From Escherichia coli (GTDB taxonomy: Bacteria; Pseudomonadota; Gammaproteobacteria; Enterobacterales; Enterobacteriaceae): a stretch of 64,000 nt of DNA. Position numbers and translations under genes: made by a program. The notes under the pieces were generated by a model. It was not told where the DNA came from, did not search any database, and saw only the letters and a program-made list of their open reading frames with translations. Below, piece by piece: positions 37,038-59,624 of this stretch; the stretch's first letter is position 1, and the number at the start of each line of letters is the position of its first letter. The stretch lies in assembly GCF_003334335.1 (NCBI RefSeq), contig NZ_QOWQ01000007.1; one strand, 5' to 3'.

Positions 37038-37141
37038 GTGTTGCGGTCTTCCTGTGTCGCTACTGCTTATCGGCTAATTATCCTGCGTCTTGAGCGCAAC
37101 AAAGCGGGGAAAAGACGCGGATTACGGTGCTACCTCTGACG
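37038..37141 (-). promoter_or_regulatory. fliL operon class-2 (FlhDC-dependent) promoter region
   Basis: Intergenic region immediately upstream of fliL; placement by established operon structure, no motif verified. Confidence 0.4.
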
Positions 37142-38269
37142 TTAGGCGAAAATATCAACGCCGCTGTTGCCTGTTACGCGCCCTTGTAAAGAGACGGGAA
37201 CCGGAAGCGTATCGTCGTCTTCCCCCGCCAGAGGTTCATGGTTTGCTGTGCGTTGGCTTTGCTGTTGCTGGGAAGCGGCCTGCTGCTGACCACTAAAGCT
37301 TTCGCCACTGATGTTGCTTTGCCCTAACTGAATGCCACTTTCGGCCAGCTGCGTTCGCAGTACCGGAAGCGCTGCTTCCAGGGCGGCGCGTACGTGTTGA
37401 TGCGGTGAAACCATCTGGATTTGCGCCTGGTTATCATCCACTTTGAGGGAGATTTGCACTTCACCTAAATCCTGCGGGTGCAGACGCAACTCTGCACTTT
37501 GTTGCCCCTGGCGGGTGAACAGCGAAATATGCTGGCTTAATGATTGTTGCCATTCGTGAGAACCCAGCGGTGCACTCAACACAGGCGCGGCGACGGTGGG
37601 CAGTGGCTGTGTCTGGTGTGGAGTGATTAGCGGGCTGGCGGCAGCGGTCACCGGTGAAGGTGTGCTGATGACTTCCGCTTTACTCTGGGCTTCTGCTACC
37701 AGCGGTGTTAATGGCTGAGCTGGCGTGCCGGGGGCATCATCAGGCTGTGCTGTTGTGAGTTGCGCAGAAGTCAGTTTTGTGAAGAGCGTTGGTTTCTCTG
37801 CCGGTAACACGGTTGACGGCACATCAGTCACTTTGGGCGTATTGTCAAAACCCGGCAACATCGCAAAAAGGGCGCTCAGGCTTGCGGTGACGTCTTCATT
37901 CAGATCATCCGCTTTTTCGTCTTTTGCCGTATTGTTGCCAGCCACCGCAGCCAACGTCATCGTTTGAGCGGTGGTTAATGGTGTTGATGTGGATTGTTCG
38001 TCGTTGATGACAGGCGGTGTTTCATCCACAGGGATCAGTAAATCCGCTTGTTGCGCATCGGCAAGAATCTCGCTGACCAGCGGCTCGCCTTTTGTCGTGG
38101 GCTTATCTGTTGCCACCAGCAACTGGGGGGCCGCTTTGTCGGTAGTTGTCTCGCCTGCTAATGCTTCGCTCAACAACGCGAGAAAATCTTGTGCAGCATC
38201 GCTGGCTTTGCCGCCAGGCAATGTGGTGGTGTCAACGTCGGCGGTAATTAAGGGCGCTAAGCGAATCAT
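37142..38269 (-). CDS. fliK: flagellar hook-length control protein FliK
   Basis: 375-aa Pro/Gln-rich ORF. Confidence 0.95.
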
Positions 38270-49556: not shown

Positions 49557-50963
49557 TTACTTGGAATTACTGTTGTTTTCGAACTGCTGCGTTAAGTAGC
49601 TGCTGGTGCTGTTTAACGAGGTCATTAAAACGTCCAGTTGGGTAAATTGTTCTTTGTAGCGCGCGACCTGCGCATCAATGCGATCGCTGGCGGCGTTGTA
49701 GTCTTTAGTTAACTTATTCAGGGTTTTACTAACGCCATCGGTAGCGGCTTTAATAATGCCCGTTGTCGAAAGCCAACTGGTCAGGTTGCTGCCGATGGTG
49801 GTTGTGATGCCGGTTTTTTTACCATCGCCAACAATCAATGCACCTACGCCGCTGGCATCTTTTTTCAGTGCAGCGGTGAGTTTGTCGGCATCCAGTTCCA
49901 GTTTGCCATCGCTGGGATCGGTCGTGATACCAATCTGTGCCAGCGTTTTATAGTTGGAAGAACTGACGGTATTACTCAGCATCGATTTCAACTGCGTCTG
50001 AATCGTCCGCAGCGTGGAGTCGCCGAGCAGTGCGCCATTGCTAGAACTCTGGCTATCAGCTCCCGCATCTACGGCGGTGTATTTGGTCAGGCTGCTGAAG
50101 GTATCTATTAGCGAGTTATAGGCATTCACCCAGTCTTTAATCGCTGTTTGCGCTTTGGAGGTGTCCTGAGTGATGGTTAGCGTCTGGTTGCCCGTGGTGA
50201 CATCGTTCAGGTTCAGGGTGATGTTTTCCAGCGCGTCGCTGATGGTGTTGCTGCTGTTCTCGATGGCGACGTTGTTGACCGTCAGCTGCGCATTTTGGGC
50301 GGCGACCGAAACCTCCATGCCGTTGCTGCTGGCACTGGCGTCATAGCCCATAAAACTTTGTAGCGCATCATCACCACTGACCGAGAGCGTCATCGCATTA
50401 TCATGGCCGGTGTCATTAGATGTGACTGACAGACGATATTCACCGTTACCCACGTTAATGATGCTTGCGCTTACGCCTGCTTTTGCGTTGTTGATAGCAT
50501 CACGGATCCCGCTTAATGACGAGTTAGCTGCGCTGATATCAATGGTAATCGGATCTTTGTCGCCGCCTTGTTGAATGGTGAGTTTACTGTCGCTGGTGGC
50601 AATCGCCGTTTTCGTATCGTCTCTGGTGGTGCGTGTGGTCAGGGTTTGCGCCTGCGCCAGATGGGTGACGCTGATGGTGTATTTCCCGGCGATGGCGTTA
50701 CCCGCAGTGGTGGCACTGAACGCGGTGGTGCTGCTGGTGGTGCTGGTGGCGGAAAAAAGATCGGTTTTAGACAATGCAGTATTGGCGGTCTGGAAAGTCG
50801 TCAGCGCGCTTTTCAGCGTACCGTAGGCGCTAAGTTTAGCGGTAAACGACGATTGCTGATTTGAAATAGGGGTTAGCGTCGCTTTTTGCGCGGCGGTGAG
50901 GCTATCGAGGATTGAACTTAAATCCAGACCTGACCCGACTCCCAGCGATGAAATACTTGCCAT
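49557..50963 (-). CDS. fliD: flagellar filament cap protein FliD
   Basis: 468-aa ORF. Confidence 0.95.
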   Translation of the reverse strand: MASISSLGVGSGLDLSSILDSLTAAQKATLTPISNQQSSFTAKLSAYGTLKSALTTFQTANTALSKTDLFSATSTTSSTTAFSATTAGNAIAGKYTISVTHLAQAQTLTTRTTRDDTKTAIATSDSKLTIQQGGDKDPITIDISAANSSLSGIRDAINNAKAGVSASIINVGNGEYRLSVTSNDTGHDNAMTLSVSGDDALQSFMGYDASASSNGMEVSVAAQNAQLTVNNVAIENSSNTISDALENITLNLNDVTTGNQTLTITQDTSKAQTAIKDWVNAYNSLIDTFSSLTKYTAVDAGADSQSSSNGALLGDSTLRTIQTQLKSMLSNTVSSSNYKTLAQIGITTDPSDGKLELDADKLTAALKKDASGVGALIVGDGKKTGITTTIGSNLTSWLSTTGIIKAATDGVSKTLNKLTKDYNAASDRIDAQVARYKEQFTQLDVLMTSLNSTSSYLTQQFENNSNSK

Positions 50964-51006
50964 GCGATTTCCTTTTATCTTTCGACACGTAAAACGAATA
51001 CCGGGG

Positions 51007-51033
51007 TTATCGGCCTGAATTGCGCAAAGTTTA
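51007..51033 (-). promoter_or_regulatory. sigma-28 (FliA) promoter of fliDST
   Basis: Minus strand reads TAAACTTT-N11-GCCGATAA, a near-perfect match to the sigma-28 consensus TAAAGTTT-N11-GCCGATAA. Confidence 0.8.
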
Positions 51034-51125
51034 CGTTTAATTGTTTTTTTTAATAGCGGGAATAAGGGGCAGAGAAAAGAGTATTTCGGCGACTAACAAA
51101 AAATGGCTGTTTGTGAAAAAAATTC

Positions 51126-51152
51126 TAAAGGTTGTTTTACGACAGACGATAA
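51126..51152 (+). promoter_or_regulatory. sigma-28 (FliA) promoter of fliC
   Basis: TAAAGGTT-N11-GACGATAA about 75 nt upstream of fliC ATG. Confidence 0.8.
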
Positions 51153-51228
51153 CAGGGTTGACGGCGATTGAGCCGACGGGTGGAAACCCAATACGTAATC
51201 AACGACTTGCAATATAGGATAACGAATC

Positions 51229-52875
51229 ATGGCACAAGTCATTAATACCAACAGCCTCTCGCTGATCACTCAAAATAATATCAACAAGAACCAGTCTGCG
51301 CTGTCGAGTTCTATCGAGCGTCTGTCTTCTGGCTTGCGTATTAACAGCGCGAAGGATGACGCAGCGGGTCAGGCGATTGCTAACCGTTTTACTTCTAACA
51401 TTAAAGGCCTGACTCAGGCTGCACGTAACGCCAACGACGGTATTTCTGTTGCGCAGACCACCGAAGGCGCGCTGTCCGAAATCAACAACAACTTACAGCG
51501 TATTCGTGAACTGACGGTTCAGGCGACGACCGGAACTAACTCCACCTCTGACCTGGACTCCATTCAGGACGAAATCAAATCCCGTCTCGATGAAATTGAC
51601 CGCGTATCCGGCCAGACCCAGTTCAACGGCGTGAACGTACTGTCTAAAGATGGCTCGATGAAAATTCAGGTCGGCGCGAACGATGGCGAAACAATTACTA
51701 TTGATCTGAAGAAAATTGACTCTGATACGCTGGGGCTGAATGGGTTTAATGTGAACGGCAAGGGGGAAACGGCTAATACGGCAGCAACCCTGAAAGATAT
51801 GTCTGGATTCACAGCTGCGGCGGCACCAGGGGGAACTGTTGGTGTAACTCAATATACTGACAAATCGGCTGTAGCAAGTAGCGTAGATATTCTAAATGCT
51901 GTTGCTGGCACAGATGGAAATAAAGTTACAACTAGCGCCGATGTTGGTTTTGGTACACCAGCCGCTGCTGTAACCTATACCTACAATAAAGACACTAATT
52001 CATATTCCGCCGCTTCTGATGATATTTCCAGCGCTAACCTGGCTGCTTTCCTCAATCCTCAGGCCGGAGATACGACTAAAGCTACAGTTACAATTGGTGG
52101 CAAAGATCAAGATGTAAACATCGATAAATCCGGTAATTTAACTGCTGCTGATGATGGCGCAGTACTTTATATGGATGCTACCGGTAACTTAACTAAAAAT
52201 AATGCTGCTGGTGATACACAAGCTACTTTGGCTAAACTTGCTACTGCTACTGGTGCTAAAGCCGCGACCATCCAAACTGATAAAGGAACATTCACCAGTG
52301 ACGGTACAGCGTTTGATGGTACATCAATGTCCATTGATGCCAATACATTTGCAAATGCAGTAAAAAATGACACTTATACTGCCACTGTAGGTGCTAAGAC
52401 TTATAGCGTAACAACTGGTTCTGCTGCTGCAGACACCGCTTATATGAGCAATGGGGTTCTCAGTGATACTCCGCCAACTTACTATGCACAAGCTGATGGA
52501 AGTATCACAACTACTGAGGATGCGGCTGCCGGTAAACTGGTCTACAAAGGTTCCGATGGTAAGTTAACAACGGATACGACTAGCAAAGCAGAATCAACAT
52601 CAGATCCGCTGGCAGCTCTTGACGACGCTATCAGCCAGATCGACAAATTCCGCTCCTCCCTCGGTGCCGTTCAAAACCGTCTGGATTCTGCGGTGACCAA
52701 CCTGAACAACACCACTACCAACCTGTCTGAAGCGCAGTCCCGTATTCAGGACGCCGACTATGCGACCGAAGTGTCCAACATGTCGAAAGCGCAGATCATT
52801 CAGCAGGCCGGTAACTCCGTGCTGGCAAAAGCCAACCAGGTACCGCAGCAGGTTCTGTCTCTGCTGCAGGGTTAA
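51229..52875 (+). CDS. fliC: flagellin (filament protein; H antigen)
   Basis: 548-aa ORF with N-terminus [54 protein letters not shown] and C-terminus ...[12 protein letters not shown]; variable Thr/Ala/Gly-rich centre. Confidence 0.95.
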
Positions 52876-52917: not shown

Positions 52918-53017
52918 TGCCTGATGCGCTGCGCTTATCAGGCCTACAAGGTGAACTGCAATTTATTGAATTTGCACATTTTTGTAGGCCAGATAAGGCG
53001 TTTACGCCGCATCCGGC
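52918..53017. repeat. BIME: two inverted REP elements in fliC 3' region
   Basis: gcctgatgcgctgcgcttatcaggcctac and gtaggccagataaggcgtttacgccgcatccggc. Confidence 0.75.
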
Positions 53018-53049
53018 AACATAAAGCGCAATTTGTCAGCAACATGCTT

Positions 53050-53072: not shown

Positions 53073-53133
53073 CTGTCCGCAATTTACCGGTAACCCCCAA
53101 ATAACCCCTCATTTCACCCACTAATCGTCCGAT

Positions 53134-53169
53134 TAAAAACCCTGCAGAAACGGATAATCATGCCGATAA
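53134..53169 (+). promoter_or_regulatory. fliA promoter region (sigma-28-type -10 GCCGATAA)
   Basis: GCCGATAA at 53162-53169, 26 nt upstream of fliA GTG start; -35 match is weak. Confidence 0.5.
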
Positions 53170-53194
53170 CTCATATAACGCAGGGCTGTTTATC

Positions 53195-59166: not shown

Positions 59167-59624
59167 TTATTTTCCTCGTCATGTTGCAATGAAAATTTGC
59201 GGTGAAAAATGTTAAGGCGGCGGAGTATACCATAAGCTTTGCTAAAAATAGCAGTGGTTGTTTTTTGAGCGTGATATCGGCAGTGCTATAAAATACGTTA
59301 ATATAATGACCAATAAATATTTTTATCATGAATGTTTTTTGCCCGTATTGTTCGGGTTAATTAATGTTACATATTCAGCGGGCTGATTTTCATTTTTGCT
59401 GAATAAAGTCAATTTTTGTCACATTTCATCGTAGGGCTTACTGTGAAACGATCCGGTAAGCCGTTGGTGACGGGCGTGACCATAACTGTGGACAATCGAA
59501 TTGACAAAAACGAGAGAAAAATCGAATACCCACCATTTTTAACGTTTCAAAGTTGCAATAAAAACCGCTAATATACGAATGACTAACTATCAGTAGCGTT
59601 ATCCCTATTTCTGGAGATATTCCT

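Follow-up and report, generated by a model that had tools for sequence, protein, structure and literature searches.

The divergent spacer between fliD and fliC very probably consists of two known FliA (sigma-28) promoters arranged back to back, one for fliC and one for fliDST, with the fliD side being a composite of class 2 and class 3 control. Both sigma-28 promoters were already known and have been well studied, so that the finding is sound and unremarkable. The sole addition to the earlier sequence-only reading of this DNA is a probable FlhDC-dependent promoter on the fliD side. The window (the whole stretch of Escherichia coli DNA that was analysed) is 64 kb long. The occupancy and expression data discussed below were recorded in K-12 throughout and not in the present strain.

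Sequence of the spacer and its sigma-28 motifs

The fliD–fliC spacer is 265 bp in length and separates the start codons of fliD (ATG at 50963) and fliC (ATG at 51229). The coordinates of the features are given in Table 1. The fliD open reading frame shares 99–100% identity with sequences that carry the fliD annotation in RefSeq genomes of E. coli. A stretch of 401 bases around the spacer shares 100% identity with E. coli strain M217 and 99% with K-12, and at least 80% of this stretch is present in 3,185 of 5,426 complete E. coli genomes. In an alignment with K-12 MG1655, two of the 265 spacer positions differ (51014 and 51113). The plus strand carries C at 51014 here and T in K-12, so that the fliD −10 element reads GCCGATAA here and ACCGATAA in K-12; at 51113, upstream of the fliC −35 element, G is found here and T in K-12.

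Table 1. Coordinates of the genes, promoter elements and leader features at the fliD–fliC locus (window numbering).
Feature	Coordinates	Strand	Remarks
fliD coding sequence	49557..50963	-	Open reading frame; filament cap, 468 aa; first gene of fliDST
Predicted sigma-28 start of fliD	50998..51001	-	From the spacing at aer
fliD sigma-28 −10 octamer GCCGATAA	51007..51014	-	Perfect consensus
fliD sigma-28 −35 octamer TAAACTTT	51026..51033	-	First six bases TAAACT, 51033..51028
Published K-12 fliD start	51042	-	Kim 2012 Table S1, position 2001817; 3 reads, 79 nt upstream of ATG
FlhDC-box-like imperfect palindrome AATAGCGGGAATAAGG-N11-GAGTATTTCGGCGACT	51052..51094	.	Candidate activator site of the fliD class 2 promoter
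A-tract GAAAAAAATTC	51115..51125	+	Directly upstream of the fliC −35; resembles an UP element
fliC sigma-28 −35 octamer TAAAGGTT	51126..51133	+	Identical to the K-12 ChIP-seq motif
fliC sigma-28 −10 octamer GACGATAA	51145..51152	+	Identical to the K-12 ChIP-seq motif
Predicted sigma-28 start of fliC	51158..51161	+	From the spacing at aer
fliC 5′ leader, two conserved hairpins	51162..51189	+	RNAalifold, 22 species
fliC coding sequence	51229..52875	+	Open reading frame; flagellin, 548 aa, H6-like allele

The sequence-only reading had placed sigma-28 motifs on both strands within 51007–51152, and both were recovered there with exactly the sequences given. Relative to the sigma-28 consensus TAAAGTTT-N11-GCCGATAA (PMC2859248), the minus-strand fliD site, 5′-TAAACTTT GCGCAATTCAG GCCGATAA-3′ (51033..51007), has one mismatch and the plus-strand fliC site, 5′-TAAAGGTT GTTTTACGACA GACGATAA-3′ (51126..51152), has two. 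On both strands of the 64 kb window these are the only sites with two or fewer mismatches. Shuffled sequences contained a mean of 0.03 such sites, and none of 100 shuffles contained two or more. When three mismatches were allowed, five sites were present in the window against 0.67 expected. Both sites are correctly oriented with respect to their genes, and the distance from the −10 element to the ATG is 43 nt for fliD and 76 nt for fliC. The earlier figure of about 110 bp between the promoters was loose: the distance is 92 bp between the −35 elements and 119 bp from centre to centre, and the outer span is 146 bp.

For scoring, a weight matrix was derived from 46 K-12 FliA ChIP-seq motifs (Fitzgerald et al., 2014, Table 2; PMC4183435), with the four motifs that lie inside the window left out to lessen circularity. 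Over 127,946 positions, the fliD site ranked first with 21.6 bits; the fliC site ranked 18th with 12.2 bits, or third if the two octamers alone were scored. The FliA-bound 28-mers of K-12 are present exactly in the window for fliC (51126–51153), fliA (53143–53170) and fliL (37093–37066). The fliD 28-mer differs from that of K-12 by a single base, G for A at the first position of the −10 element, which raises the score from 18.4 to 21.6 bits.

The second-best match to the weight matrix in the window, TAACGTATTTTATAGCACTGCCGATATC (59273–59300, minus strand, 17.5 bits), is located within yecU, upstream of yecF, and is absent from the K-12 FliA ChIP-seq sites. A search of the fliD–fliC spacer against Rfam gave no match, the only hits being REP-type elements downstream of fliC. 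One is ES036 on the minus strand (52940–52981), with a score that exceeds the gathering threshold, and the other is a partial match to naRNA4 (52987–53027); both correspond to REP-type repeats in the fliC–fliA spacer (window 52933–53027). The K-12 small RNA FliX originates in this spacer.

Conservation among species and within E. coli

For comparison between species, one genome per species was scanned for relatives of the FliC N-terminus and 80 loci were taken, of which the 55 with a divergent fliD upstream formed the comparison set. The set includes Kluyvera, Enterobacter, Pseudocitrobacter, Pantoea, Erwinia, Citrobacter and Buttiauxella, as well as Rahnella, Yersinia, Serratia, Hafnia, Photorhabdus and Gilliamella. 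The back-to-back arrangement is invariant in these 55 species of Enterobacterales and relatives: a sigma-28 site was found on each strand of the spacer in every one of them, scoring higher than any of 330 size-matched coding control windows. The gap from the −10 element to the ATG has a median of 76 nt for fliC (range 66–93) and of 38 nt for fliD (34–51, with one outlier). The N11 sequences vary, 41 forms being present on one side and 44 on the other, and the two −35 elements are separated by 73–170 bp.

On the fliD side, the −35 octamer TAAACTTT is retained in 47 of the 55 species, the −10 octamer GCCGATAA in 35 and GCCGATAN in 51; the first base of the −10 element is G in 51. On the fliC side, TAAAGGTT occurs in 34 species and GACGATAA in 24, with GCCGATAC as the Citrobacter-type form. 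The non-consensus bases of the octamers are themselves conserved across the 55 species. The survey should be useful for automated promoter annotation and for the design of reporters and promoter mutants.

Within E. coli, a diverged allele of the fliD-side spacer is carried by 1,325 of the 5,426 complete genomes. It is approximately 75% identical to the sequence described here and 19 bp shorter; all four octamers are exact and both N11 spacers differ. The diverged segment takes in fliD and the fliD-side spacer (50964–51114), has its 19 bp deletion at 51097–51115 and merges with the common sequence immediately before the fliC −35 element; the position of this junction suggests a recombination boundary inside the spacer. 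With respect to the first base of the fliD −10 element (51014), an exact 53-mer with G was found in 2,553 E. coli genomes and a further 620 matched with one or two mismatches. The A of K-12 appears to be a derived, weaker variant, and the G predicts a somewhat stronger class 3 fliD promoter in most wild E. coli. In E. coli strain A30, an IS1A element adjoins fliC, 6 nt ahead of its ATG, with fliR as the neighbouring gene. The fliC promoter, fliDST and the flagellar and yed genes that otherwise lie between are therefore absent from this strain.

The fliC allele had been noted to be unlike that of K-12, and FliC is indeed 548 aa here versus 498 aa for H48. Only 234 of the 5,426 E. coli genomes contain its central region, and one of these is named O150:H6. 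Strain M217, in which fliI is frameshifted, has a spacer identical to that of the window and a flagellin of 670 aa. The same spacer is thus associated with different flagellins, which uncouples the promoter region from the antigenically variable part.

Class 3 control of fliC and probable dual control of fliDST

In K-12, the FliA ChIP-seq signal, expressed as FAT (fold above threshold), is 110 at fliC, which is the genome maximum, and 43 at fliDST (PMC4183435). The peak centres were reported at 2001692 for fliC and 2001856 for fliD (PMC4183435). With the coordinate map window = 2052859 − NC_000913.2 position, these correspond to 51167 and 51003, respectively, just downstream of the two −10 elements. 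Deletion of fliA reduced the expression of fliC from 2319 to 11 (PMC4183435), and a 78.8-fold decrease in fliC without FliA was found by Zhao et al.

The response of fliDST is less simple. In LB mid-log cultures of K-12, deletion of fliA changed its expression from 633 to 356, which was not significant (PMC4183435), and deletion of flhD or flhC took it from 633 to 3. The authors of the K-12 study considered that dual targets were mostly transcribed from FlhDC-dependent promoters under their conditions. On these values the fliD sigma-28 motif might be a low-activity or vestigial site, with fliDST in practice belonging to class 2 and only the fliC site working as a class 3 promoter. We regard this as improbable. 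The fliD site is occupied by FliA (see the FAT value above), overexpression of fliA in an flhD deletion brought fliD back to the wild-type level or above, and in a second study fliD fell 9.9-fold without FliA (Zhao et al.); the site is also the best sigma-28 match in the window and has been kept in all 55 species while the spacer drifts. Because deletion of fliA barely alters fliDST in K-12, the fliD sigma-28 promoter is minor in LB mid-log.

The octamers could also have been kept mainly for some other DNA-binding factor, for example an RNA-guided repressor of the TldR type with a GTTAT that overlaps the fliC −10 element. In Enterobacter, prophage TldR is directed by its guide RNAs to the host fliC promoter beside GTTAT, a TldR off-target ChIP peak was recorded at the K-12 fliC–fliD spacer (PMC10705468), and the bottom strand at the fliC −10 element reads GTTATCGTCTGTCGTAAAAC in the window. 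This explanation seems highly improbable, as the TldR system exploits the promoter and does not explain it, and the Enterobacter fliC start was mapped in agreement with the sigma-28 elements (PMC10705468). Unlike the Enterobacter TldR loci, the 64 kb window contains neither tldR nor a second flagellin gene; the fliD site is without a TldR target and the FliA dependence of fliC is direct. That both motifs are chance occurrences of an AT-rich pattern might be argued from the AT-richness of intergenic DNA and from the 18th rank of the fliC site with the full weight matrix. The likelihood of this is close to nil, and it was rejected on the basis of the shuffles, the conservation in 55 of 55 species and the binding of FliA in K-12; the motifs also precede the correct genes at conserved distances.

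The K-12 deletion and occupancy data therefore point to fliC as a pure class 3 gene and to fliDST as a dual class 2/class 3 operon. The sequence-only reading had assigned both promoters to class 3. For fliC, with a 28-mer identical to the K-12 FliA motif, the assignment stands as purely class 3; for fliD it was right but incomplete. Dual control of fliDST in K-12 implies a third control element in the spacer, an FlhDC box together with a sigma-70 promoter, which is absent from the sequence-only reading. At the K-12 fliDST promoter, FlhDC was detected by ChIP-qPCR, the site was not called by ChIP-seq peak-calling, and genomic SELEX (in vitro selection of FlhDC-bound genomic fragments) gave a low signal at fliD.

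The FlhDC box consensus is AAYGSSNNAAATAGCG-N10-12-CGCTATTTNNSSCRTT (PMC9962212). A systematic scan independently found a candidate box with an 11 nt gap at 51052–51094, the highest-scoring one in the spacer, in a block that is identical in K-12. It scores 32 of 50 and ranks 24th of 191,874, the consensus being degenerate and 23 other places in the window scoring equally well or better. The reference boxes of fliA (53091–53134, the sequence listed in PMC9962212) and fliL (37101–37143) score 33 and 34, respectively. A first pairing of half-sites, AAATACTC (51086–51079) with CGCTATTA (51058–51051), was dropped as its gap is 20 nt and the consensus needs 10–12. Two conserved blocks are apparent in an alignment of the spacer from 16 genera: TAAT(A/G)GCGGGAATA at 51050–51065 and GAGTATTTCGGCG(A/G)CTAA at 51079–51096.

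The best box between the promoters lies 18–20 nt from the fliD −35 element in 45 of the 55 species (at 19 nt in 37), the exceptions being mainly AT-rich Gilliamella genomes; the distance from the same box to the fliC −35 element ranges from 12 to 102 nt. Because the distance to fliD is fixed while that to fliC varies, we infer that the box at 51052–51094 belongs to fliD and not to fliC. At fliA and fliL, the promoter-proximal edge of the box is 18 nt from the sigma-70 −10 element GATAAT (53153–53158 and 37082–37077, respectively), and the published fliA start, with a 30 nt leader, maps to 53165, which is 7 nt past GATAAT and fits this geometry. At fliD, the distance from the box to TAAACT (51033–51028) is also 18 nt. 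With the same geometry as at fliA and fliL, the class 2 sigma-70 −10 element therefore probably lies inside the sigma-28 −35 element, with TAAACT probably serving as the −10 element of an FlhDC-activated fliD promoter. A simple sigma-70 scan of 50700–51500 showed no promoter-like site; activator-dependent promoters would be missed by such a scan anyway, and the result carries no information.

A stronger version, in which the single stretch TAAACT is used by two holoenzymes in mutually exclusive registers approximately 20 nt apart, agrees with the present results and is doubtful. If true, such dual use would fix the FlhDC box at 18–20 nt and account for the near-invariance, across Enterobacterales, of the non-consensus C at position 5 of the −35 element. 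The overlap may already be implicit in the mapping of start sites in Salmonella.

The sigma-28 starts in Table 1 were placed by analogy with aer, where transcription begins 6 bp downstream of the −10 octamer (PMC2859248). Conservation of the fliC leader across genera begins exactly at 51158. The published K-12 fliD start (Kim et al., 2012) lies upstream of the sigma-28 −35 element and 10 nt from the FlhDC-like box, and fits neither promoter model; a −10-like TATTAA is found nearby at 51055–51050. The same study placed a 'fliC' start with two reads inside fliD. Neither start was accepted as promoter evidence, given the minimal reads and a position that fits neither geometry. A sigma-28 start for fliC is absent from the table of Kim et al. 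(2012), presumably owing to poor expression of the flagellar regulon in that MG1655 stock. No usable sigma-28 start of fliC or fliD was found in the data of Ettwiller (2016), Mendoza-Vargas (2009), Cho (2014) and Conway (2014), and no start coordinates for either gene are given in Melamed (2023) or the RNase E paper.

The predicted fliC leader contains a first hairpin with the stem CGGC/GCCG (51162–51175) and a second with the stem GGGU/ACCC (51178–51189). Covariation among the 22 species is seen at the fourth pair of the second hairpin, with UA in 11, CG in nine and UG in two. The loop of this hairpin carries GGA and the Shine–Dalgarno sequence is AGGA (51216–51219), which together look like a CsrA-type pair of GGA sites. 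Upstream of the promoter, the A-tract GAAAAAAATTC is nearly invariant in a cross-genus alignment of 16 sequences and in the diverged E. coli allele. The A-tract may act as an UP element (an AT-rich enhancer upstream of a promoter), which might explain how fliC is the strongest FliA site in K-12 despite a non-consensus −10 element.

In the composite arrangement that we favour, sigma-28 RNA polymerase would read TAAAGGTT-N11-GACGATAA rightward from a start at approximately 51158–51161, giving a fliC transcript with a leader of approximately 70 nt and two conserved hairpins before the flagellin gene. This class 3 promoter fires only after completion of the hook–basal body and export of the anti-sigma factor FlgM. 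Leftward, the sigma-28 holoenzyme would read TAAACTTT-N11-GCCGATAA from a start at approximately 51001–50998, with a leader of approximately 38 nt before fliDST, and an FlhDC-activated sigma-70 promoter would act through TAAACT with a predicted start near 51021. Through FlhDC, the products of fliDST would then appear early, and sigma-28 would provide for a second round of synthesis at a late stage or in filament repair. On this reading the strain keeps the textbook wiring despite its H6-like allele, with fliC purely under sigma-28 and fliDST under FlhDC and sigma-28.

Comparison with known promoters

The K-12 fliC promoter (PMC4183435) has the identical 28-mer, TAAAGGTTGTTTTACGACAGACGATAAC, with the same leader and the same distance to the start codon; it drives the 498 aa H48 flagellin, whereas that of the window drives the 548 aa H6-like flagellin. 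The K-12 fliDST promoter shares with the window the −35 octamer, the spacer, the position and the FlhDC-box-like block, but the first base of its −10 element is A in place of the G that gives full consensus here. The fliC promoters targeted by TldR in Enterobacter (PMC10705468) have the same sigma-28 −10 element with GTTAT on the bottom strand.

The Citrobacter-type fliC promoter, TAAAGTTC-N11-GCCGATAC, has the same architecture, with a divergent fliD, a similar distance to the ATG (66–75 nt) and a conserved second leader hairpin; it differs in having other non-consensus positions in both octamers. We assume that this type is also that of Salmonella; the loci compared included no Salmonella genome.

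The class 2 promoters of fliAZ and fliLMNOPQR in the window resemble that proposed for fliD in having a box 18 nt from the sigma-70 −10 element and an overlapping sigma-28 motif. They differ in the register of the overlap. At fliA and fliL, the sigma-70 −10 element GATAAT lies in the spacer of the sigma-28 motif and the sigma-28 −35 element is poor, whereas at fliD the putative sigma-70 −10 element TAAACT coincides with a good sigma-28 −35 element.
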